A DNA stretch of 64,000 nucleotides from contig JAZKJH010000005.1 of assembly GCA_040384485.1 (NCBI GenBank), positions 3,375 to 67,374 on the forward strand. Direction: 5' to 3'. This DNA is from Patescibacteria group bacterium (GTDB lineage Bacteria > Patescibacteriota > Minisyncoccia > Phycocordibacterales > DATDWN01). Position numbers and translations under genes: made by a program. The notes under the pieces are model-generated. The model saw only the letters and a list, made by a program, of their open reading frames with translations, ran no database searches and was not told the origin of the DNA. This document shows, one piece after another, positions 8,992 to 35,742 of the stretch; position 1 is the stretch's first letter; each line of letters begins with the position of its first letter.

Positions 8992-9888
8992 TTACTCATT
9001 TATGCTTTTCAAAAATAGTTCTCCTAGAACTTTGTGTCCATCCATGAGACAGTCAACAAGCCCATCGAAGTCTTGCCATCGTGCCTCTACCAGGTCGTCA
9101 CCAGCTTTTACTTCTCCGTCTAGATACACCGCAGAAAACAAAGCGGTCATAAGCTTGTGCTCTGACTTTCTATATCGATAATCATTTGCACGGACGGAGG
9201 CGATATACTTCACATCAGCAACTTCTATATTTCCAACCTCCTCTCTCGCCTCACGTCTCGCCGCGTCCTCAAGACATAAATCTTTTGGATCCACAAACCC
9301 ACCGGGAAATCTCCAATTCTTTTCTCCAGGCTTTCTACCAACAATAACTTTTCTTTCTGTTGTGTGTCGTATGGCAATATCAACCGCTTGAAAAGATGTG
9401 GGAAAGTTTTGTGAGTTACTAGCGTATATAACACCTGTACGGAAATCCTCAGAGTCAATAATTTTGTTTGCAAGTTTTTTACGCACTTCGGTTCCAGAAA
9501 CTGACTCATGTTTCGGCTCAACATACTGAGTTTTATGTTTACCAAGATAATGAGGAATAAAACTATCTCGAGACCCGAACAAAGTAATATCGTGATCTGA
9601 AAAATTATTTTCGATTAAAGTATCTAAGTTTTCAGACCATGCCTCGTTAGTTGAACAATCATATATAGGCAATATGTGTGCATCTGGATAATGCTTCTGC
9701 AACATCACTTTCCGAGTTTCAAAATCCAATGGGTCATTACTTCCAGCCCAACCTCCATTTACACCCAAAGCGACAAGTAGTTTATCTGCATTTTGTTTCG
9801 CTGTGTCCAAAAGATACCGATGTCCGTCGTGGATCTGAGGCACTTGGAGCCTACATACCACCACCCCTACTGTGTTATTTTTGTTCAT
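8992..9888 (-). CDS. nadM: Bifunctional NMN adenylyltransferase / Nudix ADP-ribose pyrophosphatase (NadM-Nudix type)
   Basis: HDGH nucleotidyltransferase motif and a Nudix box GGFVDPKDLCLEDAARREAREEVG. The start is moved to MNKNN (9888) so that the upstream operator and promoter are non-coding. Confidence 0.75.
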   Translation of the reverse strand: MNKNNTVGVVVCRLQVPQIHDGHRYLLDTAKQNADKLLVALGVNGGWAGSNDPLDFETRKVMLQKHYPDAHILPIYDCSTNEAWSENLDTLIENNFSDHDITLFGSRDSFIPHYLGKHKTQYVEPKHESVSGTEVRKKLANKIIDSEDFRTGVIYASNSQNFPTSFQAVDIAIRHTTERKVIVGRKPGEKNWRFPGGFVDPKDLCLEDAARREAREEVGNIEVADVKYIASVRANDYRYRKSEHKLMTALFSAVYLDGEVKAGDDLVEARWQDFDGLVDCLMDGHKVLGELFLKSINE

Positions 9889-9933
9889 ATTTATTAAATA
9901 AATTATATGGTTGATTATATACCTTTGCTTATT

Positions 9934-9952
9934 TAGTGTCAAGTCAACACTA
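9934..9952 (-). promoter_or_regulatory. Candidate NrtR operator (TAGTGT-caagtca-ACACTA) overlapping a TTGACA-17-TATAAT promoter for nadM
   Basis: 19-bp palindrome with the same half-sites as the sites at 12381 and 33962. On the minus strand it reads tagtgTTGACTTGACActa ... TATAAT. Confidence 0.6.
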
Positions 9953-9978
9953 TTTTTAAACAAATATAAAAATAAAAT

Positions 9979-10647
9979 CTATTGTGTCTTAAAGCAGTAC
10001 AAAGCTGCGGGTCGCATCACCCCTTTCTTAATGGTTCTCTTGGTATCCTTCAAAAGCCCAAGGGATAAAATTCTCTTTCTGAAATTTCTCTTATCCATAC
10101 TCTCTCCCAAAATAGCCTCGTACGTTTTCTGTAAATCAGAAAGTGTAAACTCTTTTGGCATCAAGTGCTTGGCGATGTCTGTATAGATTATTTTTGATCG
10201 TAGTCTTTCTATAGCGACATCTGTTATTTTATTGTGATCATAAGCTAGCTTCCCCACACTATACGCTGACTTCCAAACTGTAGGGGTTTTTGCTTTTTCA
10301 ACATTTTGCTCTGATTTGGAATTTATAAAACCTAAGTAGGCTACCGCCACCACTCTGCCTCGCGGATCCCGATCTATTTCGCTAAACGTGTATAGCTGTT
10401 CCTTGTAAATATCCTGGATCCCACCTTTGTCTCGAAGTAATCGATCAACGGATTGTTCTGCAGTTTCATCCACATGTATAAGCCCTCCTATATGGGCCAA
10501 TTGGCCCTTAAAGGTATTGTCCGAGGTAACCTCCCCCAACAAAACCTCTAGCTTACCTTCTGTGACACAGAAACAAACAACATCCACAGCAAGAGCTGCA
10601 AAACGTATATCAACTGGTATTGGATTATTGTCCTTAGATTTCTTCAT
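9979..10647 (-). CDS. nrtR: NrtR-type Nudix-related transcriptional regulator of NAD metabolism
   Basis: Degenerate Nudix domain (GGLIHVDETAEQSVDRLLRDKGG) followed by a C-terminal winged-helix domain. It is embedded in the NAD salvage operon. Confidence 0.7.
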   Translation of the reverse strand: MKKSKDNNPIPVDIRFAALAVDVVCFCVTEGKLEVLLGEVTSDNTFKGQLAHIGGLIHVDETAEQSVDRLLRDKGGIQDIYKEQLYTFSEIDRDPRGRVVAVAYLGFINSKSEQNVEKAKTPTVWKSAYSVGKLAYDHNKITDVAIERLRSKIIYTDIAKHLMPKEFTLSDLQKTYEAILGESMDKRNFRKRILSLGLLKDTKRTIKKGVMRPAALYCFKTQ

Positions 10648-10666
10648 GCTCTTATTATAACACTAA

Positions 10667-11653
10667 TTATTTTACTAATATTTGATCGATTGCTCCAATA
10701 GCTTGTTTTAATCGTTCTTCCGGACTACCGCTCACACAAATGAAGTTTCTGTTAGTTTGGGTTAATTTTTCAATAAACCTTTTGTGCATATCGTGACGAA
10801 TATGCTCACCGTCTCGCAAGCCATCTTGAACAAAAGGTATTTCATCCCCTGTAACAATGTATAAATCATATTTTCTGGTGTCAGAAAAATCATCGACTTC
10901 TTTAGATGCTTTGCCTACATATCTTTCGTGCCAAACACTTGTTGCAAAAGGGTCAGTATCGCATATTACCAATCCATTTCCAGATTCTGTAATAAAATCC
11001 TCTGTCATTGCTTGCATTCTTGCGATGTTTAAAAATTCCTCGCTTCTCCATCTAGCTTCTTCTCCACCAAAACCTTTGCTTTCAGAGTATAGTCGTCCGT
11101 ACTCCGGTACCCAGACAGTTTTGTAATATTTCGCCAAGTCGCGAGATAAAGTCGTTGTGCCTGTTGACTCTGCGCCCAGAACACAGACTCTTCTAGAGAA
11201 GTTAGCCCTCACGCACGGCTCTAAAAACGGCGCTGCGGCCAAAGGGTCCTTTCTGACCATTGTCGCTGAGATAGGTATTGTAACTCTGGCTCTGTCCACT
11301 AGCACATGAGCACATCCCATAAAAGATGCGTATGGGTCACCGTAGTCCTCCGAAGTGAATACTGCGTCTGGTTTTTTTCCAAGCACTTCCAGAGTAAACT
11401 TTGCCCACCCCTCTGAGTCGTCATCGGTTAACTTGTTATCTTCTACAACTTTTATATGTACGTCTGGATGAATTTTCCTCAACCAATCAGCTCGAAGATA
11501 GCCAGAAATAGTTTCGCTTCTTTTCCAGCAAAGTATAACTATCAACTCATCACACTGAGCTTTTGCAGTATCGATAAGGTATTTATGTCCACGGTGAGGC
11601 GGATAAAACTTACCAATAACAAGACCTGTTTTAAATTTAAAAGAATTATTCAT
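10667..11653 (-). CDS. nadR: NadR-like bifunctional NMN adenylyltransferase / ribosylnicotinamide kinase (no HTH domain)
   Basis: N-terminal GKFYPPHRGHKYLIDTA (the H-x-G-H motif). C-terminal P-loop VCVLGAESTGTTTLS of the RNK domain. Confidence 0.75.
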   Translation of the reverse strand: MNNSFKFKTGLVIGKFYPPHRGHKYLIDTAKAQCDELIVILCWKRSETISGYLRADWLRKIHPDVHIKVVEDNKLTDDDSEGWAKFTLEVLGKKPDAVFTSEDYGDPYASFMGCAHVLVDRARVTIPISATMVRKDPLAAAPFLEPCVRANFSRRVCVLGAESTGTTTLSRDLAKYYKTVWVPEYGRLYSESKGFGGEEARWRSEEFLNIARMQAMTEDFITESGNGLVICDTDPFATSVWHERYVGKASKEVDDFSDTRKYDLYIVTGDEIPFVQDGLRDGEHIRHDMHKRFIEKLTQTNRNFICVSGSPEERLKQAIGAIDQILVK

Positions 11654-11662
11654 AAATAATAA

Positions 11663-12370
11663 TTAGATTGTCTCAGTCTCTAGGTTACTTTTCGTTTGCT
11701 TACTGTATGACTTATGTTCTTTGTGCCAACCAATCAAGCCACTTATCGCTATTCCCAGGAATAAAACATATTCCAGAGAAATAAACTTCACTCCTTTAAC
11801 CCAGTATAGCCATATACCTATAACATCCACGATAATCCAAAGTACCCAAGACTCTAGTTTCTTCTTAACCAATAACCACTGTGCAATAAAGCTCATTGTA
11901 GTTGTAAACGCATCTAAAAAGGGATATGTTGTTGCTTCTGGAAAGTATTTTGGTAGCCAATTATCTAGATTCATAGTTACCCATGCTAAAACAACAGTAA
12001 GGAAAGCGACTAGGATAGCATAGAAAACATTCACCTTAAAGCTATTTGTTGATATTTTTAGAGTGTCATTTTTCACTCCGTTCTTATCCTTCTTTGGATG
12101 TAGCCAAACATACCAACCAATAAAACCTGTAATCAAAAAGTACCCCTGTTCCAACATATCTCCATACAGATTGATTTGGTAGAACAGGACCATATATAAT
12201 GTAACTCCAACTATTCCAATAGGCCAAGATAGGATTTTGGCTTTTGATGTGAGCCATACGCACCAAATGGTGAATATCGTACCGAAAAACTCAACATAAC
12301 TCATGGAATAATCCATAAGCGTGAAAAACGTAGTATTTATGCTGAAAAAACTTTGTATTGCTTCAATCAT
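11663..12370 (-). CDS. pnuC: Nicotinamide riboside transporter PnuC
   Basis: 235-aa membrane protein with the W-rich PnuC pattern (ILSWPIGIVGVTLY...WLYWVKG). Confidence 0.8.
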   Translation of the reverse strand: MIEAIQSFFSINTTFFTLMDYSMSYVEFFGTIFTIWCVWLTSKAKILSWPIGIVGVTLYMVLFYQINLYGDMLEQGYFLITGFIGWYVWLHPKKDKNGVKNDTLKISTNSFKVNVFYAILVAFLTVVLAWVTMNLDNWLPKYFPEATTYPFLDAFTTTMSFIAQWLLVKKKLESWVLWIIVDVIGIWLYWVKGVKFISLEYVLFLGIAISGLIGWHKEHKSYSKQTKSNLETETI

Positions 12371-12380
12371 AATGATATGG

Positions 12381-12399
12381 TTATAACTATTAGTGTATA
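12381..12399 (-). promoter_or_regulatory. Candidate NrtR operator, a perfect 19-bp palindrome TAGTGTATAATATACACTA, 11 bp upstream of the pnuC start
   Basis: Perfect inverted repeat with a GT-N7-AC core. It contains a TATAAT box and lies next to the nrtR-containing operon. Confidence 0.65.
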
Positions 12400-12443
12400 A
12401 TATACACTATCATAACCGATATTATAATGCAAGTATTTAAATA

Positions 12444-12478
12444 AAATCGCACGTTGCAACTACAAAGTGCGATTTTTA
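12444..12478 (-). terminator. Rho-independent terminator of the upstream Nudix gene
   Basis: Stem atcgcac ... gtgcgat with a U-run on the minus strand. Confidence 0.55.
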
Positions 12479-12483
12479 TCAAG

Positions 12484-12906
12484 TTAGTTATCGAAGAAGT
12501 TCTTACCTCCTTTATAAGCCTCAAAATAGTGCTCTAGCCCAGAAAATAGTGGTGATGGTAAGTTATCCAAGTCATACCAACCCCAACCTTCACACTTGTT
12601 TGGTTCCATAACTTGTGGTTCCCCGCTCTTCCAGTCAGCAATTAACCCAATGTCTACATAGTGTTTTGGGGCATATGTTTTTAGGTTTAATAACCGGAGA
12701 AAATTTATATTATCAATCTCGATTCCTGCTTCTTCCATAACTTCCCTCTTTGCTGACTCGGTAAAAGACTCCATGTATTCAAAATGTCCGCCCGGAAAAG
12801 CATATTCGCCTACTGCATGCGAACCTTTTCTTTTTCCAAGCAACACTTTGCCATCCTTAAGGATCATCACCCCTATTCCAACTTTTACTATATTTTCATT
12901 TTCCAT
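12484..12906 (-). CDS. Nudix hydrolase (MutT-like)
   Basis: Nudix box GGHFEYMESFTESAKREVMEEAGI. 140 aa. Confidence 0.75.
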   Translation of the reverse strand: MENENIVKVGIGVMILKDGKVLLGKRKGSHAVGEYAFPGGHFEYMESFTESAKREVMEEAGIEIDNINFLRLLNLKTYAPKHYVDIGLIADWKSGEPQVMEPNKCEGWGWYDLDNLPSPLFSGLEHYFEAYKGGKNFFDN

Positions 12907-27253: not shown

Positions 27254-27327
27254 AGCCGCTGGCCAGACTTGCACTGGCGACCTCGTCATTACCAATGACG
27301 TGCTCTAACTACCCGAGCTACAACGGC
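27254..27327 (-). tRNA. tRNA-Thr (anticodon GGU)
   Basis: Cloverleaf: acceptor GCCGTTG/CAGCGGC (one G-U pair), D-arm GCTC-GGGTAGTTA-GAGC, anticodon arm CGTCA-TTGGTAA-TGACG, T-arm GCCAG-TGCAAGT-CTGGC, discriminator U. A leader and trailer (gaga/tctc) extend the acceptor stem. Confidence 0.75.
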
Positions 27328-27395: not shown

Positions 27396-28019
27396 TTATT
27401 TTTTAAACTCGACTATTTTACCGATTTCTATTTCTATTTTATCGGCAAGTCGGAGATTTTTTATTTGTTTCTTGGAAAGGATCGAATGATGTTTGATTGA
27501 ATCAAGTTCTCCTGGTATATCCCACAACTCTTCTTCACTCGTTCTCCATTCTATTTTATTGAATCTGTTTAGGTTTAGTGGTACCGAATACTCTCGCAAT
27601 GTTTTTTCTCCTGAGTGCAGGAAATATTCATGAAAAAAAGACATTACGAGTTCACGTATGGTTTTATACACTGGCTCTCTATACCGCAGTACTCCATGAT
27701 TAGTTTTAGAAATCGCTCCCCAATGTCCGTCTTGTTTCCAAACTGCAAGCACATGGTCATAATCAAATGGTTTTTTCACAGAACGTAAGTCGAGCACAAG
27801 CGGCTTGTAACCGTGGAACTCTAATGCTGCTGCGGCGAACATCGCTCCTTCCATACAGTGCGCTGTTCCATCCCTAACAACTCTTCTTGGTGACATAAAC
27901 GTATCGCCATTTTTCTCAAAGTTGAAAGGGATACTGTTTAGGTAGTCTTGAATTTTTGCTGGTGAGTTTAGTTTTTTTAGAAAATCTTTCTCTTCTTTCG
28001 TGTATCCGTAATCCTTCAT
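27396..28019 (-). CDS. Transglutaminase-like / papain-fold cysteine-peptidase-superfamily protein
   Basis: DGTAHCMEGAMFAAAALEFHGY (Cys region) and DHVLAVWKQDGHWGAIS (His region). 207 aa. Confidence 0.45.
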   Translation of the reverse strand: MKDYGYTKEEKDFLKKLNSPAKIQDYLNSIPFNFEKNGDTFMSPRRVVRDGTAHCMEGAMFAAAALEFHGYKPLVLDLRSVKKPFDYDHVLAVWKQDGHWGAISKTNHGVLRYREPVYKTIRELVMSFFHEYFLHSGEKTLREYSVPLNLNRFNKIEWRTSEEELWDIPGELDSIKHHSILSKKQIKNLRLADKIEIEIGKIVEFKK

Positions 28020-28085
28020 GGATACATTATATCAAAAAAGTCCCCACCGAAGTGGAGACTGTGTAGTAACCGAAATATAGATACA

Positions 28086-28235
28086 TTATTCTCCCCCTTT
28101 CTTTATCGCGAGCTTTGCCGACTGCCGATTGTAACTCACTCGACCCTTTCCAGGTCGATGGTAACCGCCTGTCTGTCGCGGAAGTGGAACACGCGGCAGA
28201 TTAAAACCATGCTTCGTTCGAGCTGACTTTCTCAT
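28086..28235 (-). CDS. Unannotated small basic protein of 49 aa
   Basis: AAGGAGG Shine-Dalgarno 6 nt upstream of the ATG. MRKSARTKHGFNLPRVPLPRQTGGYHRPGKGRVSYNRQSAKLAIKKGGE. GC-rich codons. Faint bL32/bL34-like character. Confidence 0.35.
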   Translation of the reverse strand: MRKSARTKHGFNLPRVPLPRQTGGYHRPGKGRVSYNRQSAKLAIKKGGE

Positions 28236-28300
28236 CTCAGACCTCCTTATTTACTATAGCATATTATAGTTAAAAAGTCAATATATTGTAATTTTGTTAT

Positions 28301-28330
28301 AAAAAAACGCCACCTTTTGCAAGATGGCGT
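28301..28330 (-). terminator. Terminator of the kinase gene
   Basis: Imperfect stem acgcca ... tggcgt followed by a U-run on the minus strand. Confidence 0.45.
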
Positions 28331-28354
28331 AGTGAAAAGAACAATGTGACAGGT

Positions 28355-30088
28355 TTACTTCATACGGAGACTCCAAACGTCTCCGTTTTGTATGTACACA
28401 ACCATATCACCCAAGTTGAAAAGAACCATATCAGTGCTAATATTCTTGTCACTGAGATGCTTTCCAGTTCCGTTTGTTGGAACTGTAATAAACAGCTCGC
28501 TGTCAGTTTCAATCGTTGCACATACTCCCTTTGGCAGGATGGCGACGTTTAACTCGGCAGTGTCTGTAATTTTCTCTGACAGTTTGTATGTTTTATAACT
28601 ACTGTCAAAAGAGAGCTCAACTTTTCTGTATGAACCATCTTTTGCAACACACGAAAGAACAATAAACCGGTGACCGGACTTGGCGTTCACCACCTTCAAA
28701 TTATCCAGTTCCGGCACACGGACATGGGCACATGTTCCTTCTCCGAAGGGAGATATAACATACGTTGCTCCCATCATATCCTGCACACCAACACCGTTCC
28801 ACCATTTGGTAGAGTTCACCACCACACCCCAGGTATTTCCCGCGGAAAGTAGGGGTTTTGCAAACATGTTTACAGTAACTTCAGTCAACCCGTTTTCGGT
28901 TACTGCAAACATACGGTTTTGGTAACTTAGAAATCGTGTCAGTGAGTACGGAAAAGAGAGTTCGAACTTTTCAAAACTCGTCTCTTGTATATACTCAAAC
29001 ACAACTACCTTGTTACGATAGTCCGCGACCAGGTATCCACCAGTGACTTTTACCACTTCTGCTTCTACAGAAGTCACCTGTCCGATTTTCCTGTTTTTGA
29101 AAATCTCCACAAGTAATCCCGATGAAAGCAGTGCTACGCCACAACTAAAAACTTTGACCACAGGATCATTAGCTACAGTCAAAAGTTTTTGGAAAACAAG
29201 TAAGTCTCCCACGCCCACAGTTACTGTTTTTAAAACTTTCGCTGTTTTTGGGGAAACGGTATTGTTATCCAAAGGAGAAGGAGCTTTGACTCGTTCCCCT
29301 TTTTGAAATGTAGACTCATACCAAGATAGCAAGTTTTTCGGTATGACAGAAAAGTCTCTCACTGCCCTGTTCAACCGAATACCTTTTGAAAAAACAGATG
29401 CATTCGCTTTCATTCTCCCTGTGAGATCTCCCATCTTAAAACCATCCAGAGTTCCCTTGTACGGGTGGATCCCTGTATAGATCTGGAAGGTAATAATCCC
29501 CCAAGAAAACCAATCTGTACTCTGGCTGAAACCCTTACTGTGCCAATCCCTAATTGAAGGCATGATCACAGTAGGTTTCCATTTTCCTATTGCCCACGAG
29601 TCGACATCAAAAACCCTTGGTTCAGGACTTTTGCTTTTCTTATGAACAACGTTCCAATTCAACTCGTTTGGATCAACCAGAGTTGCGCCGTGCGCATGTC
29701 CAAACTCAAACACTTCCCGCATCCTATGCACAAGTACCGACGCATCTTTATCTCCAAAGCCGTACTTAAGATAAAAATCATTAGTAAAAACTTGAGACAA
29801 GGGGTGTCCGTCTGCTTTCTCCATGTAGAACCCGAGAAATTGCCCCTTACTTCCAAAGACCAAATTTTTCGGAGCAACTATGTACGGATGCTGCAGTCCA
29901 CTAAGTAACTTGATTTTATCCTGTAAACCACTTCCCAAAACTTTTTGTGGGTCGTGGTATAGCTTTATGACAGTGTCAGAAAGTCCGTAAACTGAACCTT
30001 CACCGCCACTCGCTATGTGGTCGTTGGGTCGGAGAATAACACTTCCCCGCCCAACCAACTCAATCTCTGTGTTGGTTTTGATTTGCAT
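28355..30088 (-). CDS. Ser/Thr protein-kinase-like protein with a 300-aa C-terminal domain of unknown function. It is the kinase member of the TerY-P-like triad.
   Basis: Gly-loop IASGGEGSVYG, beta3 Lys in TVIKLY, hinge YMEKADGHPL, catalytic-loop-like HGATLVDPNELN, subdomain IX DWFSWGIITFQIYTGIHPY. The start ATG abuts the TAA stop of the phosphatase. Confidence 0.7.
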   Translation of the reverse strand: MQIKTNTEIELVGRGSVILRPNDHIASGGEGSVYGLSDTVIKLYHDPQKVLGSGLQDKIKLLSGLQHPYIVAPKNLVFGSKGQFLGFYMEKADGHPLSQVFTNDFYLKYGFGDKDASVLVHRMREVFEFGHAHGATLVDPNELNWNVVHKKSKSPEPRVFDVDSWAIGKWKPTVIMPSIRDWHSKGFSQSTDWFSWGIITFQIYTGIHPYKGTLDGFKMGDLTGRMKANASVFSKGIRLNRAVRDFSVIPKNLLSWYESTFQKGERVKAPSPLDNNTVSPKTAKVLKTVTVGVGDLLVFQKLLTVANDPVVKVFSCGVALLSSGLLVEIFKNRKIGQVTSVEAEVVKVTGGYLVADYRNKVVVFEYIQETSFEKFELSFPYSLTRFLSYQNRMFAVTENGLTEVTVNMFAKPLLSAGNTWGVVVNSTKWWNGVGVQDMMGATYVISPFGEGTCAHVRVPELDNLKVVNAKSGHRFIVLSCVAKDGSYRKVELSFDSSYKTYKLSEKITDTAELNVAILPKGVCATIETDSELFITVPTNGTGKHLSDKNISTDMVLFNLGDMVVYIQNGDVWSLRMK

Positions 30089-30940
30089 TTAGTTACCCTC
30101 TCTGTCGATTCTTACAACTGCATAAGAAATATCATCAACCGGACCATGTCCAACTTTTTGATAATCCTTGATGCCTCGGATCATGCGCCGTTTAGCAAAC
30201 TCACCGCTCAGACTTTTAAAATCCAAAAAGTTTAGAGTTGCGCTTTTCCAGTCCACGGAATCCACTTGTGTGACCCCGTCAGAAAACAATGCAACAAACT
30301 CCAAATCATTCTGAATTTCTTCTGTGCTGATAAAAACACTAAACCCACCAATCGCATCGGCAAAAGGAATGCTCGTCTCCTTTTCACTGACACAGACACT
30401 ATCACGATACTCGACTTCTATAAGTCGAAGTTTTGCATTCTCCAAAACACCACCGTGAATATTCTGTACATACAAATCTGAATCAGATTCGGTATACGCA
30501 GGATAATATGGAGCGTTATTGGCCCAATCAAACCTTTTTAAAGAGATCCTGCCGTCTGTGTACTTCAATGCAATCACACCATCACCTAAAATTCTGATGA
30601 TTCCCTGATCCTGCGACAGAAAAGAATACATACACGTTGCAAGTAAATCCGATCGGTCTAGGCCAAGACTTTTTTTTACTTCCTCTACTTTTTGTTTTGC
30701 TTGTGTCTCTACTTCAAAAACAGAAAAATCTGCCTTTGTGCCAACACCTAATACATTTGCTATAGACAATGCGTACAAACGAGCACCAATGTCTGTATGT
30801 CCACCAGTGGAACAACCATCCGAAACTACTGCATACCCCGAAGAGTCAGAACTCTTGGAGAGTGCATAATCCTGGCATGGCTTACCCGAGTTCAAGTGGC
30901 TATAACCAATGTAAAAGTAATGATCAGTATAAAACTTCAT
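30089..30940 (-). CDS. PP2C-family Ser/Thr protein phosphatase (triad member)
   Basis: Motifs CQDYAL, AVVSDGCSTGGH, ILGDGVIAL, SDGVTQ and DDISYAVVRI. The start is set at the ATG at 30940, preceded by GGAAGGAGAGG. The ORF-track TTG start at 30955 is rejected. Confidence 0.75.
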   Translation of the reverse strand: MKFYTDHYFYIGYSHLNSGKPCQDYALSKSSDSSGYAVVSDGCSTGGHTDIGARLYALSIANVLGVGTKADFSVFEVETQAKQKVEEVKKSLGLDRSDLLATCMYSFLSQDQGIIRILGDGVIALKYTDGRISLKRFDWANNAPYYPAYTESDSDLYVQNIHGGVLENAKLRLIEVEYRDSVCVSEKETSIPFADAIGGFSVFISTEEIQNDLEFVALFSDGVTQVDSVDWKSATLNFLDFKSLSGEFAKRRMIRGIKDYQKVGHGPVDDISYAVVRIDREGN

Positions 30941-30954
30941 AACCTCTCCTTCCA

Positions 30955-30988
30955 ATAAAAAAGGAGGAACGGTAGAGACCGTTCCTCC
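30955..30988 (-). terminator. Strong intrinsic terminator between the vWA and PP2C genes
   Basis: Perfect 11-bp stem ggaggaacggt-agag-accgttcctcc followed by UUUUUUAUU on the minus strand. The PP2C SD and ATG follow within 15 nt. Confidence 0.65.
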
Positions 30989-31003
30989 TGTGAACGACCT
31001 CGA

Positions 31004-31762
31004 TTAGATCGTGGCCGCGATATTCTGACTCGGTCCGCCAGTGCCCAGAGACTGGGACTGCGACGAGACAGACTGTGATACAAAGTTTGCGAGTTTGGCA
31101 AGTTTGCCTTTGGTCGCATCCCCAGCATCAATGTACTGATCCAATCCAGCATCCGACTGGAAGGCCGTAAGAATTGAAGCGTAGGAACCAGCATTGATAC
31201 CAACAAGAACGGTCACGAGTGACTCGATCTCTTCGGCTCTGGTTCCACGTCTCAACTCCTCTTTGATGGATAAGGATGTAGCTTTGGATTTGTTATCGTC
31301 CCCGTCAGTGATGACAAAAACGATACCATTTGCCAAAAAGTCCTGATCCATGAGTTTCTTTGCGTACGAGTTGGTAGCCCCAACCGCCGAAAAGACTGCA
31401 TCACACAATGGTGTCTCGCCTGATGGACGAAAGTCTGGATACAAAGTTGTATCAACTTCCGACAAAGGTTTGAAGCCATGAATCTCCTCAACACCACCAT
31501 GAAGTGAAGTTGAGAACATGATGACACGCAACAATAAGTTGTTGGCTCGTGGAGACTTTTTGCAAGCCTCCACGGCAACAATCAAAGCGTCGCGCAGTTC
31601 TTTGGCGAATCCCCAGGTTGAACCAGACACATCAACTGCAATCGTTGCAAGTGTGTACTCGGTTGCCCCGAGGTGTTCGATTCGCTTACCGGAAAACTGG
31701 AAGGCTTGTAACCCTCCAATTTTTCCGGTTTCCATTGTTGGGTCGTTCAAGATTTTTGGCAT
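31004..31762 (-). CDS. von Willebrand factor A (vWA) domain protein, TerY-like (triad member)
   Basis: MIDAS DxSGS in IAVDVSGSTWG and a downstream VITDGDDN. AAGGAG lies 6 nt before the ATG. The start is 10 nt after the pncA-like stop. Confidence 0.75.
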   Translation of the reverse strand: MPKILNDPTMETGKIGGLQAFQFSGKRIEHLGATEYTLATIAVDVSGSTWGFAKELRDALIVAVEACKKSPRANNLLLRVIMFSTSLHGGVEEIHGFKPLSEVDTTLYPDFRPSGETPLCDAVFSAVGATNSYAKKLMDQDFLANGIVFVITDGDDNKSKATSLSIKEELRRGTRAEEIESLVTVLVGINAGSYASILTAFQSDAGLDQYIDAGDATKGKLAKLANFVSQSVSSQSQSLGTGGPSQNIAATI

Positions 31763-31772
31763 TGTTTTCTCC

Positions 31773-32593
31773 TTATGCCAAGAAATCAGTAGTGGTGGTG
31801 ATCTTCATTCCTAAACGTTGCATATCCTTGAGCCATGCTTCCGCAATAGCTGGGAAATCAACAATGTTCGGGATTGCTGGAACAGGACTCATACCGTCAC
31901 GGAGCAAGTGAAACTTCTTCACCTGATCCGCTCCGATATTGTCGGCGATCTGCTGAACTGTGTTCAACACGCAGTGGCTCGATGCCTCCCCTGCGACCGC
32001 GACGATGTCCGCATCTGCAATGGTCTGCAAGAATGCAGTATTGAGACCGGTCGAAGGGTCCGACGGATCTGGCACTTCTGCCAGAAGGGCGCCGTAGTGT
32101 TCAGTCCAAGGATTTGAACCCTTTGTGACATAATCCACCATGGCGAACTGTTTCTCCGACCACCGTTGCAATGCGTCGTTCAGTACTGGATGGACATTGT
32201 GTCCAGCCGTACCAATGAGGCAATGCGGGGGCCAGATGGTAAGCGTAAATTTCTTCTGCGCTTCCAGTTCCTTGGTATACGCAAGTGAACGAGCTCGAAA
32301 GCTCGGATTGCGAGGGGTCCAGATTCCAGCTTCGATATCACTTGAACTGATCTGAGTAAATGGTGGAGGATTTTCACCCTTTCCATTCACCCACCAAGCA
32401 GGATGAGCGATATCGATCAGCCGATGACTATCCAATGTGACATGGATGTCATCCAGTTTGTGTCCGATACGATCAACGAGTTTTGCAACCCGCTTCATAT
32501 CAGCATCGGCCCCAGGAACCGGCAGTGCCGATCCCGGGAGATCGCAGAAATCAATCTGCGGATCGATGATCAAAAGATGCACTTTCAAACTAG
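31773..32593 (-). CDS. pncA: Isochorismatase-family cysteine hydrolase, probable nicotinamidase (PncA-like)
   Basis: The core LLIIDPQIDFC and its position downstream of pncB. The start is re-assigned to the GTG at 32593, preceded by AAGGAG. The ORF-track ATG at 32711 would overlap pncB by 77 nt. Confidence 0.55.
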
Positions 32594-32634
32594 ACTTTCT
32601 CACGACTATCTCCTTTATTTGTCTTGCGTTTATT

Positions 32635-33879
32635 TTACGAATGACATACTTCTTGGAAGGTATTGGTATACCCAACAAGTCTTTTTGCACGTTCGACTGC
32701 TTCAGCATCACCCGTAGCTTTTTCGATGTTATCCGAAAGCTTGACTACGTAGTAACCGTTGGCTTTGGTCGGTTTAACCACAATAGAAATGGACTTAAAG
32801 CCCAAGTTATTACTGGCGTTTGTGCCCCAACCAAATGTCGTGAGCATCCTTTGGTCAACCTTTGTATAGATCTCAATCATTCTGTCTGCATTGAGACCGT
32901 CTGCAAAGATAACCAGTTTCGTACGAGGATCAACTCCGATGAGTCGATACTCGTTGATACGTGCCTCCGCGTATTCTTCGGGAACCCCCGAGTCCTGACG
33001 CGAACCTTTCCATCGACGCAGCATATCTGCATCGACACAATTTTTGAAGAACCAATCACTACCGTAAGTATCAGGCAGAAAGATTGATAACCCCTGGCCG
33101 TATTCATTGTCCCAATCTGCAAGCATTCGCTTCTGCGAATACGCTGGGTCAACATCATCACTGTCTCGAAAAATCCCACTGTATACCATTGGCAGTTCGT
33201 GTGCGTTGGTACCTACTGGCATCAACCCGTACTTCTGCGCAAGATATGTATTGGAAGTTCCTTTGAAAGTTTCAGGGCACTCTTCCTTCATGACACTAAC
33301 AACGTAGTCCTGCCAGTTACGGCTAAACCGTCGTCGAGTACCAAATTCGGAGAATGTGATCCCTGGGTACTTCGCAAGCTTGTCGAGACTCTCACCCAAA
33401 CGAAGCCTGCCGTTTGCCTCCACTTTGTCGCGCTCAAAAGAAGAATAACCTCTCATGAGCTGGCGATTGTAGAGCTCGTTAACAACAGACATTCCAAAGT
33501 TTTCCCAGTAAGTTGCTTTCGCCCACTCACCAGCAAATCCAAGTTCAATCTGTCCATCCCGTTCTTCCAAATGGAATTCGGGAAGCTGTAGAGTCTGAAG
33601 AAAGTCGATGTAATCAAACTTAAACATCGGACTTCCGTACTCGTATGTGCCCATGATGTAGTGAAGCTCTTGAGGCGTAAAACGCAATGTGCGGATATGC
33701 TCCAATTCTTCACGAAGTTGACCGAGGTCAACTTTCTTACCAAGTAACACAGACTTGCTTCTGTTGATGAATGAGAACTCCACAGGAACCTTTGGATGCC
33801 GATGAAAAATCATCTGCCCCATTGTAAACTTGTAGAAATCTTGATCCATCAAAGAATGAATGACTGGTGCGTCCTTCAT
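32635..33879 (-). CDS. pncB: Nicotinate phosphoribosyltransferase
   Basis: 414 aa. The N-terminus is MDQDFYKFTMGQMIFHRHPKV, and the whole protein has PncB-like architecture. Confidence 0.85.
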   Translation of the reverse strand: MKDAPVIHSLMDQDFYKFTMGQMIFHRHPKVPVEFSFINRSKSVLLGKKVDLGQLREELEHIRTLRFTPQELHYIMGTYEYGSPMFKFDYIDFLQTLQLPEFHLEERDGQIELGFAGEWAKATYWENFGMSVVNELYNRQLMRGYSSFERDKVEANGRLRLGESLDKLAKYPGITFSEFGTRRRFSRNWQDYVVSVMKEECPETFKGTSNTYLAQKYGLMPVGTNAHELPMVYSGIFRDSDDVDPAYSQKRMLADWDNEYGQGLSIFLPDTYGSDWFFKNCVDADMLRRWKGSRQDSGVPEEYAEARINEYRLIGVDPRTKLVIFADGLNADRMIEIYTKVDQRMLTTFGWGTNASNNLGFKSISIVVKPTKANGYYVVKLSDNIEKATGDAEAVERAKRLVGYTNTFQEVCHS

Positions 33880-33961
33880 AACTCTCCTTTTGGGCCTTAG
33901 CCCTAAAATCCATATGTTGTTGTCAAAGGTCTATATAATGTTCTAAGTACACTATATACCT

Positions 33962-33980
33962 GTGTGTATTAAGTGTCAAG
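33962..33980 (-). promoter_or_regulatory. Candidate NrtR operator (AAGTGT-caagttt-ACACTA) overlapping a TTGACA-17-TATAGT promoter for pncB
   Basis: Half-sites identical to those at 9934 and 12381. The spacer is almost identical to the nadM site. Confidence 0.55.
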
Positions 33981-34083
33981 TTTACACTAAATTAGACAAT
34001 TAAATAGTAAATAAGTCAAATAAAACCGTTTTTCACGGCTTGAAGTGTTTACTTATGAAAAGCGGTAATGCATCGGTGAAGAA

Positions 34084-35742
34084 TTAGATTTTTTCACCAA
34101 TCAAAACCATATTTGTTTCTGGATAAGGTATTGAAGTTAATGTACTCCCCTCTTTGTTATAAAGTGCAACTTTGTTATTAAAACGGTTCTCAACTATCCA
34201 CGGTATTGCAAACGCTCGAGAAGATTTCTCCATTTCATTTGGGTTTTCAATTATCCTAAATCCAGCATTTTTTAAAGCATTCTTCCATTCATTGAAACTC
34301 CAAAAAGCAAACTCTTCATTCAATTCACTGTTCCAATTATCTGTATAATCCTTTTTGGTCATAAACTCCATAGCGTCTTTTAGTTTCAAAACTATGTATG
34401 TTTTGTTGTCCAGAATTTCTTCAGTATATTTTATTTTTGTGTCCTCTCCTCTTTTACCATTCTCTCTCATACCTCTTAGGTAGTCTTCTGCGAACCTAAC
34501 AAATCTAGCATGAGTAGAAAGCCCATTTAAATGTTCTTGTAAACTATCTTGTGAATCACAAACTTTCAAAATATCTTCGTTTGAACCGTCACTGCTATTA
34601 AGTTCCATATAGACTATTGAATCTTTGTTTTCAGGTCCCACCACATCACGTATAACCAACCTGCCTCCTTTGTTTAGTTGTTTTTGTTTAAGGTCGATGT
34701 AGTTCAAAAGTGATTCTTCTCTATCCCCATATGACCATATCTCGTGAGTTGTAGAGTTGCAAATAGTAGTATCGATAGACGAATCTTCAAATATTTTTTC
34801 CATCAAATTTCTCTGATGAAAATAAACGAAAGTGCCTCCAAATTCTCCGGCACGCTGTCTCTCAAGACACCGAGCAGTGAACTCACTTGTTATTTCTATT
34901 CCTATTATATCTGAGTCAGTAAAGTCTTTTGCAAGGAGAGTCATCAAAGCTCCGTCTGCACAACCTTCGTCAACTATTTTACCAGGTACAAGAGATTCTT
35001 TTATGTCTTTATATTTTGAAAGTAAAAGATTGGTATGACCCATCCCAATTGCGTATGTAGAGTAATTTCTAGTTTCAGTAAGACTTCCACTTTCAGTAAG
35101 TAACGGGTCTCTCCAAAGTCGTACTATCTTTGCAGTAATTTCAGGAAAATCCTTCCAGAGCTGTATGGTTGATCTTGAAACACCATCAACCAATCCTTGA
35201 TTGTCACTCCAGCTATTTCCTACTTCCACCAATTTTTTTATGTATTCGATAGGTGTATCTGACTTTAACAACTTATTTGCAACATCGTATTCAGCTGGTA
35301 AGACTGCAAAACCAAGTTTATTATACATATCGATCATAGTTGGGGTAGAACTAAGAACAACTGTATTTTTGTTTGTTAATTTGATATTACTTTCAGTCCT
35401 TTCACTTACTTCTTTTAAAATATAGTCAGCAAAGTGTTCGTTTGGATTAAAATGAGGAATAGCCACAATATCACATTGCACACCCAAAGATTCCCTATAC
35501 TCTTTTGAAAACCTATCTAGACCTAGTGCCCTCATATAAAATGGAACTGGATTGTAACGAGAATTTTCCTGGTTAGCCGAAGTCACTGCAAAGATTATAT
35601 GAGTGATTTTGTCATTTGAGTCTCCCTTATAATCTCCTACCAAATCAAGTTTACTAACTGGTAAACGCAAAATATCCCACAAATAGTTCTGTTGAAAAGC
35701 TGTGGTTAAAAGATGTCTTCCTGGAAATAACAAATACGCCAT
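34084..35742 (-). CDS. Two-domain protein: an N-terminal domain of about 250 aa of unknown function, plus a class I SAM-dependent methyltransferase
   Basis: Motif I GKIVDEGCADGALMTLLA and post-motif II GGRLVIRDVVGP. The N-terminus has only a faint resemblance to HIGH-type nucleotidyltransferases (LLFPGRHLLTTAFQQNYL). Confidence 0.5.
   Translation of the reverse strand: MAYLLFPGRHLLTTAFQQNYLWDILRLPVSKLDLVGDYKGDSNDKITHIIFAVTSANQENSRYNPVPFYMRALGLDRFSKEYRESLGVQCDIVAIPHFNPNEHFADYILKEVSERTESNIKLTNKNTVVLSSTPTMIDMYNKLGFAVLPAEYDVANKLLKSDTPIEYIKKLVEVGNSWSDNQGLVDGVSRSTIQLWKDFPEITAKIVRLWRDPLLTESGSLTETRNYSTYAIGMGHTNLLLSKYKDIKESLVPGKIVDEGCADGALMTLLAKDFTDSDIIGIEITSEFTARCLERQRAGEFGGTFVYFHQRNLMEKIFEDSSIDTTICNSTTHEIWSYGDREESLLNYIDLKQKQLNKGGRLVIRDVVGPENKDSIVYMELNSSDGSNEDILKVCDSQDSLQEHLNGLSTHARFVRFAEDYLRGMRENGKRGEDTKIKYTEEILDNKTYIVLKLKDAMEFMTKKDYTDNWNSELNEEFAFWSFNEWKNALKNAGFRIIENPNEMEKSSRAFAIPWIVENRFNNKVALYNKEGSTLTSIPYPETNMVLIGEKI

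Follow-up and report, generated by a model that had tools for sequence, protein, structure and literature searches.

A four-gene cassette of a nicotinamidase-like hydrolase and a vWA, phosphatase and kinase trio, found behind NrtR-type operators in a Patescibacteria genome and widespread in candidate-phyla bacteria and huge phages

TerY-P modules, of which YegL-PphC-YegI is the example in Escherichia coli K-12, have kinases with a zinc ribbon (Anantharaman 2012) or, in the defence systems of Gao 2020, an OB-fold at the C-terminus; they are associated with restriction or DNA-processing systems, and TerY-P-like modules have also been reported as stand-alone defence systems (all summarised in PMC11090510). 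NrtR regulators belong to a family that responds to ADP-ribose and have operators with a GT-N7-AC core (PMC2330246), and among their targets an unexplained pair, nrtX-nrtY, was reported (Rodionov 2008, PMC2330246). Three sets for rebuilding nicotinamide adenine dinucleotide (NAD) are known: NARP1 recycles ADP-ribose, NARP2 takes nicotinamide to NAD+ via nicotinamide mononucleotide and NARP3 is formed by PnuC and NadR (PMC13464706). The Nudix- and WYL-regulated ADP-ribosylglycohydrolase (ARH) systems contain a vWA protein described as a peptide-binding partner (PMC9503650). The stretch analysed here, called the window, comprises 64,000 nt of DNA from a Patescibacteria group bacterium; the locus of interest lies at 28355-33879 on its minus strand, where genes for a vWA protein, a PP2C phosphatase and a Ser/Thr kinase follow two genes of NAD salvage, pncB and a pncA-like gene.

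The region is best explained, with a confidence somewhat above even, as an NrtR-controlled nicotinamide-salvage module that has a vWA partner and its own Ser/Thr phospho-switch. The unit conserved across genomes, judged from sequence, comprises four genes: a long nicotinamidase-like hydrolase, the vWA protein, the PP2C phosphatase and a kinase with an all-beta domain. In the window these four are preceded by pncB, and the five open reading frames (ORFs) stand in the order that had been proposed for them:

32635-33879, minus strand: pncB, nicotinate phosphoribosyltransferase, 414 aa (Pfam NAPRTase, 1.1e-41; NCBIfam NF003704, 399 bits, above the cutoff)
31773-32603, minus strand: long-form PncA-like cysteine hydrolase, 276 aa from GTG 32603, the first gene of the cassette
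31004-31762, minus strand: TerY/YegL-like vWA protein, 252 aa, with a complete MIDAS (metal-ion-dependent adhesion site) motif and a Ser/Gln-rich C-terminal tail
30089-30940, minus strand: PP2C-family Ser/Thr phosphatase, 283 aa (PF13672 PP2C_2, 5.8e-15), with GGAG upstream of ATG 30940
28355-30088, minus strand: Hanks-type Ser/Thr kinase with a C-terminal all-beta domain

The longest ORF of the hydrolase covers 31773-32711 (312 aa), and its start is likely to be GTG 32603 instead, which has AAGGAG 7 nt upstream, lies 31 nt past the pncB stop and gives a protein of 276 aa in agreement with the family median of 275 aa. The PP2C gene was listed as 30089-30955, ATG 30940 being the likelier start. 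The junctions described in the original prediction were found as stated: the vWA ATG is 10 nt from the hydrolase stop and has its own AAGGAG, within a TAAGGAG that overlaps the stop codon, and the kinase ATG at 30088 adjoins the TAA stop of PP2C (30089-30091). The motifs quoted for the trio are also present in the translations, being DVSGS in the vWA protein, QDY, DGCSTGG, LGDG and SDG in the phosphatase, and the glycine loop SGGEGSVYG, the VIKL lysine and DWFSWGI in the kinase.

The window proteins were mapped on loci collected from genomes, IMG/VR viral contigs, metagenomes, plasmids and phages. Cassette counts refer to non-redundant loci, and loci of the candidate phyla radiation (CPR) type were judged by sequence identity; the metagenome contigs are without taxonomy. 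The hydrolase gene is directly upstream of vWA in 11/11 genome loci and the PP2C and kinase genes are downstream in 9/9; this set spans Gracilibacteria, Saccharibacteria, Paceibacterota, Falkowbacteria, Bradyrhizobium, an alphaproteobacterium and a myxobacterium. The same arrangement was identified in metagenome loci (hydrolase directly upstream in 50/50, PP2C and kinase downstream in 41/41). For the IMG/VR viral loci the hydrolase lies within 10 kb of vWA in all 58, adjacent in 42, and PP2C and kinase follow in 54 of 57. PP2C is the gene next after vWA in every cellular locus assessed. The cassette is thus found in Patescibacteria, in some Proteobacteria and Myxococcota and in many huge-phage contigs. 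Reduced versions comprise the hydrolase alone, in Paucimonas, and an NrtR<>hydrolase-vWA arrangement lacking PP2C and kinase, in Variovorax; in a related metagenome contig the gene after NrtR<>hydrolase is unannotated and, at 241 aa, vWA-like in size. The architecture is graded from hydrolase alone through hydrolase and vWA to all four genes.

The original prediction had described a triad appended to pncBA, and a four-gene cassette that includes the pncA-like gene replaces that description. When synteny was compared the hydrolase always accompanied the trio, but pncB directly before the hydrolase gene is the arrangement of this window and was found in 0/49 other cellular loci. The latter count would suit an adjacency that arose by chance, or by the recent insertion beside pncBA of a signalling trio unrelated to it, as would a terminator between vWA and PP2C, but the four genes are in order in essentially every locus, across phyla and phages, and NAD genes, NrtR and NrtR operators recur around them, which makes such an origin hardly credible. 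The insertion artefact that had been entertained for the trio is excluded because the coupling to NAD salvage is conserved across hundreds of loci.

Neighbouring ORFs were clustered and representatives identified by Pfam. The recurrent partners of the cassette are PncB (41 loci), the glutamine-dependent NAD synthase NadE (36 loci, 12 of them viral) and NrtR/Nudix proteins (43 loci), together with a NadD-like adenylyltransferase of the nicotinamide mononucleotide adenylyltransferase (NMNAT) type, ARH and a protein resembling nucleoside-deoxyribosyltransferase (NDT). The cassette thus stands among genes of the Preiss-Handler pathway (pncB, nadD-like and nadE). Where the flanks were long enough for assessment, 22/25 cellular and 24/48 viral loci had one or more NAD-related genes. 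In 10/44 cellular loci pncB begins directly after the kinase, and the trio therefore stands between two enzymes of one pathway. Homologues of nrtR adjoin the cassette in many loci. The elements of NrtR regulation identified in the window are the following:

33951-33979, minus strand: sigma-70-like promoter TTGACA-17-TATAGT upstream of pncB, 11/12 matches, the best in a 9-kb scan (-35 TTGACA at 33979, -10 TATAGT ending at 33951)
33971-33989: NrtR-type operator 1, TAGTGT-N7-ACACTT, overlapping the -35 of the pncB promoter, one mismatch to TAGTGT-N7-ACACTA
33936-33954: NrtR-type operator 2, overlapping the -10 of the pncB promoter, one mismatch
12391-12409: perfect NrtR-type operator upstream of pnuC-nadR-nrtR, no mismatches
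9934-9952: perfect NrtR-type operator upstream of nadM, no mismatches
9979-10647, minus strand: nrtR, regulator with Nudix and winged-helix domains (NrtR_WHD 5.4e-26, NUDIX 1.2e-4)

The two perfect sites define the operator motif within this genome, and the motif, a palindrome, shares the GT-N7-AC core of the published NrtR operators (PMC2330246). Matches to it number 5 in the window against 2.5 expected, a count not significant by itself as 12 of 100 shuffles reach 5; the four best matches are all upstream of NAD genes. The pncB promoter, with both of its boxes overlapped by operators and with nrtR in the same window, thus appears to be under NrtR control as had been proposed, the NrtR of the window being its presumed trans-acting repressor. 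Beyond the window, 29/60 cellular loci have, in the 400 nt before the hydrolase gene, an operator with no more than one mismatch, and cellular loci contain 0.10 operators per kb where viral ones contain 0.002, a difference of about 60-fold. The coupling of the trio with NAD salvage suggested by the original prediction is accordingly conserved, with NAD genes, the regulator and its operators recurring around the cassette. The nrtR gene belongs to a second NAD cluster at 8992-12906 (minus strand), formed by a Nudix hydrolase, pnuC, a nadR-like gene (NMNAT and kinase), nrtR and nadM-Nudix; since the longest nadM ORF includes the operator at 9934-9952, translation of nadM probably begins further downstream, near the methionine of MNKNN.

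The hydrolase matches nicotinamidases of the Protein Data Bank (PDB), those of M. tuberculosis (PncA, 3pl1) and Leishmania (3r2j), via WPPHC, and further segments aligned with solved nicotinamidases are the N-terminal IIDPQIDF motif and the SSHCV cysteine region; the regions of D50 and C247 align with their IVDVQNDF and FCV motifs. Across 115 aligned members of the family (51 viral), conservation is at least 95% at D50, K197 and C247 and likewise at D94, H96, H103 and H163. By alignment, the protein retains the residues corresponding to the metal ligands and to the catalytic D-K-C triad of the solved nicotinamidases. In Paucimonas the long hydrolase fills the PncA slot of NrtR<>PncA-long-PncB-NadE-NadM/Nudix-ARH. 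Several CPR loci also have, near the cassette, a divergent second paralogue of the long hydrolase (25-43% identity), often close to nrtR (L002 12606-13487, L005 14566-15444, L007 8022-8900 and L150 at about 13587).

The vWA protein had no match in Pfam (E up to 10), in PADLOC or among PDB sequences, searched with the single protein and with a profile. Its fold is established by structure prediction and Foldseek only: the AlphaFold model has a pLDDT (predicted local distance difference test) of 85 and Foldseek gives a probability of 1.0 to vWA/integrin I domains. The MIDAS residues D44, S48, T117 and D153 are invariant in the homologue alignment. Comparison with E. coli YegL by hhalign gave E 6e-5 and 64% probability over 173 columns including the MIDAS residues; by fold, motif and this alignment the protein is of the TerY/YegL type. 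More than 3000 homologues remain at 90% clustering, JGI naming homologues YegL; the best 120 of these have 62-83% identity, and those with a named source are nearly all Patescibacteria. The C-terminal tail, residues 221-252 (31004-31100, minus strand), is Ser/Gln-rich and near-invariant from CPR bacteria to Proteobacteria and phages (KLAKLAxFVSQSVSSQSQSLGTGGPSQ), and a serine-rich stretch of YegL aligns with it.

The phosphatase has only a weak BLAST match to E. coli PphC (E 0.003). In the kinase K42, D139, D161 and D163 are invariant in the homologue alignment, the Hanks fold is supported by structure and hhalign against E. coli YegI gave 96.8% probability. The kinase domain comprises residues 1-275 and is followed by a disordered linker and by an all-beta domain at residues 295-577 (about 283 aa), predicted as about 29 beta-strands; the whole protein is soluble. 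The C-terminal domain is probably propeller-like, since the best structural match of the full-length model in Foldseek is the kinase-WD40 part of LRRK2. Inspection of the translation by eye did not reveal a cysteine-rich zinc-ribbon motif. The pncA-like, vWA and kinase proteins are under or absent from Pfam thresholds.

By this evidence the trio is a distant member of the broad TerY-P/YegL-PphC-YegI class. The assignment to the TerY-P triad made in the original prediction is sustained in the architecture of vWA, PP2C and kinase and in remote homology, but not in the zinc-ribbon or OB-fold fusion nor in the context of restriction genes or defence islands.

Two terminator-like structures were identified in the transcription unit:

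about 30955-30989, minus strand: intrinsic-terminator-like hairpin and T-run, between the vWA stop and the PP2C ribosome-binding site
about 28299-28330, minus strand: terminator-like hairpin ending the kinase transcript, 10-bp stem with 5 GC pairs, followed by TTTTTTT

The first has a 12-bp stem with 7 GC pairs and a loop of 4, followed by TTTTTT, and folds at -26.8 kcal/mol (z -2.7). A hairpin and T-run stand at this junction in 62/100 unique loci, including nearly all those with the vWA-PP2C spacer of 53-125 nt that is typical of CPR; their position is constant and their sequences differ among loci. Phage and proteobacterial cassettes have vWA-PP2C gaps of 5-24 nt and no hairpin. An Rfam scan of 27-36 kb returned a tRNA alone, the hairpin corresponding to no known RNA family, and a promoter scan of 9 kb gave no convincing separate promoter for PP2C. 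The hairpin may be a conserved internal attenuator by which more hydrolase and vWA protein would be made than phosphatase and kinase. The co-transcription of all five genes, as originally proposed, is compatible with the hydrolase-vWA junction, where the 10 nt lack a hairpin and fit co-transcription with translational coupling, but the whole is doubtful because a terminator-like hairpin separates vWA from PP2C.

For the preferred reading, a salvage module with a phospho-switch, the following course is proposed. Consumption of NAD+ would let ADP-ribose accumulate, and NrtR would then leave the two operators of the pncB promoter, pncB, the hydrolase gene and the vWA gene being transcribed as one. 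The hydrolase would convert nicotinamide to nicotinate and PncB would convert nicotinate to nicotinate mononucleotide (NaMN), for resynthesis of NAD+. Most transcripts would end at the hairpin after vWA, with PP2C and kinase made at a lower level by read-through; a lower level of these two would suit regulatory subunits. The beta domain of the kinase may receive a signal from a ligand or partner, and kinase and phosphatase would set the phosphorylation of the vWA protein or of the hydrolase, tuning nicotinamide recycling. The best candidate site is the invariant serine-rich tail of the vWA protein. In phages the cassette would keep NAD+ available during infection.

Several observations weigh against this reading. 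The hydrolase scores under curated thresholds (17.5 bits for Pfam Isochorismatase, cutoff 27; 33 bits for NCBIfam PRK11609, cutoff 174), is extended at its N-terminus and carries an inserted stretch of about 50 aa, so that its substrate could differ from nicotinamide. Some genomes (L001) also contain a canonical short isochorismatase-type gene, so that the housekeeping nicotinamidase may be a protein other than the long form. In Variovorax the vWA gene has no kinase beside it, yet the tail of the protein is just as well conserved, which weakens the candidacy of the tail as phospho-acceptor. The read-through that would supply PP2C and kinase is assumed, the propeller call depends on one Foldseek match and strand counts, and half of the viral loci lack a NAD gene within 10 kb by the queries used.

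A wider proposal is held tentatively, with clearly less confidence than the salvage module itself: the cassette may be an undescribed and widespread signalling-controlled NAD+ recycling system, common to candidate-phyla bacteria and huge phages, in which the phospho-switch would gate deamidated salvage upon NAD+ cleavage or infection. It would then add to the three known ways of NAD+ reconstitution a fourth one that is regulated, and would give a TerY-P-like trio its first metabolic role.

The presence of the cassette in phages bears on a rather unlikely alternative, in which it would be a phage weapon, a regulated deamidated (Preiss-Handler) route of NAD+ reconstitution against NAD+-depleting immunity, the CPR copies having come from phages and been kept for a salvage lifestyle. 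Fifty-eight non-redundant IMG/VR loci, many of them on contigs of 100-600 kb, and three curated huge-phage genomes (LR756511, LR745208 and LR756500) carry it, but no cultured phage in INPHARED does, and some IMG/VR contigs are perhaps misclassified cellular DNA or proviruses. One such contig (IMGVR_UViG_3300033489_000001, 411,618 bp, entered both as L020 and L142) is listed as viral, yet its cassette is of the CPR type (59% vWA identity) and has the internal hairpin, and nrtR is present too; this contig may come from a megaphage or from a small cellular genome that was classified wrongly. The nearest neighbour of a vWA protein is of the same class, viral or cellular, in 139/143 cases, and since viral and cellular proteins mostly form separate neighbourhoods the viral matches are not simply misassigned CPR contigs. 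The vWA proteins share on average 60% identity among cellular loci, and 47% both among viral loci and between the two classes; the greater diversity of the viral copies would favour a phage origin, but faster phage evolution could also explain it. Viral loci also have pncB, nadE, nadD-like genes and even nrtR, and NARP1-3 are established counter-defence (PMC13464706). On the other side, the cellular cassettes belong to the NrtR regulon of their hosts, have operators of the host type and possess an internal terminator specific to the lineage, an integration that argues for long cellular residence; the need for a vWA/PP2C/kinase trio in a salvage pathway is not explained by a phage origin. The window itself looks cellular.

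The base composition of the locus is shared evidence for the phage origin and for antiphage defence. Its G+C is 0.42-0.50 over the five genes (28000-34000) against about 0.37 in the flanks, which may reflect horizontal origin or merely strong protein conservation; it was set aside as evidence of horizontal transfer because other conserved genes of the window, such as icd (36 kb), are raised as well.

A TerY-P-type antiphage defence, in which the trio would sense infection, the hydrolase would be the effector (for example destroying nicotinamide and so blocking phage NAD+ rebuilding) and NrtR would switch the system on at NAD+ cleavage, appears improbable, more so than a phage origin. Its architecture and remote homology are those of the YegL-PphC-YegI/TerY-P class, from which stand-alone defence systems are reported (PMC11090510); the NrtR family responds to ADP-ribose, a product of NADase defence (PMC2330246); and the Bradyrhizobium cassette lies in a region called provirus by IMG/VR. 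However, the flanking genes in the window are housekeeping ones (pyrG, ftsEX, prfB and icd), with no integrase or restriction genes among them, and the partners across loci are NAD biosynthesis enzymes and not nucleases or other toxic effectors. The very high conservation, at 60-83% identity, and broad CPR distribution are unusual for defence genes, huge phages themselves commonly carry the cassette, and the kinase lacks the OB-fold or zinc ribbon of the TerY-P kinases described. The antiphage reading of the original prediction is not upheld by a neighbourhood of NAD and housekeeping genes and by a cassette common in huge phages.

PADLOC (PADLOC-DB 2.0.0) gave no match for the vWA, PP2C and kinase proteins even at E up to 10, and no more than trace-level matches for the neighbours at the locus. 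This lack of a significant match would count against defence, but the E. coli K-12 trio used as control (L166) likewise had no TerY-P match, so the negative result is not evidence against TerY-P membership.

Other elements surround the cassette in the window. Between it and prfB there are a tRNA gene at 27254-27327 (minus strand) and a 207-aa protein at 27396-28019 (minus strand) with a vasohibin-like match that is faint and below threshold. The gene immediately before the pncB promoter encodes a 552-aa protein (34084-35742, minus strand), whose first 240 aa or so have no match and whose remainder is a class I S-adenosylmethionine (SAM) methyltransferase; at least four further loci (L091, L108, L126 and L144) have homologues of it close to the cassette. 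Just downstream of the kinase is a very basic ORF of 49 aa (MRKSARTKHGF..., 28086-28235, minus strand) with its own promoter-like site, a strong ribosome-binding site and a terminator. This ORF was considered as a fifth component of the cassette and rejected, no homologue having been found in any fetched locus.

In other loci, genes of the tRNA or RNA-repair type, judged by sequence alone, were identified near some cassettes (L074 4714-5499, L040 2267-3385 and the cellular L108 2071-3684). Phage loci present a putative Thg1-like guanylyltransferase and an RNA ligase, and a probable CCA-adding enzyme cluster is near the cassette in three viral and two cellular loci.

The cassette proteins escape the models of Pfam, NCBIfam and PADLOC and are currently labelled hypothetical. 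Depletion and reconstitution of NAD+ are central to the conflict of phage and host, to which the cassette would add a regulated deamidated route beside the three described (PMC13464706). The poorly understood TerY-P/YegLKI class would gain a concrete biochemical partner, and in candidate-phyla bacteria, which depend on salvage, the cassette may show how a vital cofactor pool is controlled.

No description of the four-gene cassette, widespread as it is, was found in the searchable literature, in agreement with the original prediction, which knew of no trio behind an NrtR-controlled NAD-salvage promoter. PncA, isochorismatase and PP2C are not mentioned in such a context by two surveys that deal with the NAD and ADP-ribose systems of viruses and jumbo phages (PMC7824862 and PMC9503650), and none of the three terms occurs in the main text of PMC9503650. 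The NARP3 paper (August 2026) lists NARP1-3 only (PMC13464706). Literature linking NrtR with this vWA protein was not found, the sole co-mention being an unrelated transcriptome of a Nudix deletion. The nrtX-nrtY pair might be the hydrolase-vWA pair; the homology search on this point returned only Burkholderiales and metagenome proteins.

Compared with the known systems, the cassette has the gene order vWA, PP2C, kinase of E. coli YegL-PphC-YegI. The kinase domain of YegI is homologous to that of the cassette kinase and PphC, by annotation and literature, is a PP2C-type phosphatase as well, but sequence identity between both trios is only about 25% and the E. coli locus, unlike the cassette, has no hydrolase gene, NAD genes or NrtR nearby. 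The TerY-P antiphage and CoCoNuT modules, as described in PMC11090510, share the three domain classes and the proposed logic, a phosphorylation switch on a TerY-like vWA protein. Their kinase is fused to a zinc ribbon or OB-fold and their partners are restriction or DNA-processing systems, whereas the kinase here continues into an all-beta domain and the trio is invariably accompanied by a nicotinamidase-like enzyme in NAD-salvage clusters.

The Nudix- and WYL-regulated ARH systems (Iyer et al. 2022, PMC9503650) contain, as here, a Nudix-HTH sensor of ADP-ribose, an enzyme of NAD or ADP-ribose and a vWA protein; in them the enzyme is an ADP-ribosylglycohydrolase and the phosphatases are of other families, ARH genes being found near some cassettes. 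NARP1-3 are phage-borne sets for rebuilding NAD+, and the cassette is likewise frequent in large phages, together with pncB, nadE and nadD-like genes. Its route would be the deamidated one (nicotinamidase, nicotinate phosphoribosyltransferase, NadD and NadE), which does not match the enzyme sets of NARP1, 2 or 3, the PnuC and NadR pair of NARP3 being absent from the cassette, and it has a dedicated signalling trio.

The NrtR-regulated pncA-pncB operons (PMC2330246) share with this locus the repressor of Nudix and winged helix-turn-helix domains, the GT-N7-AC operators overlapping promoters and the targets pncA and pncB, and Paucimonas has a plain NrtR operon built with the same long hydrolase. 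Classical NrtR regulons comprise metabolic genes and transporters only (PMC2330246), whereas at this locus the metabolic genes are joined by those for a vWA protein, a phosphatase of the PP2C family and a kinase.

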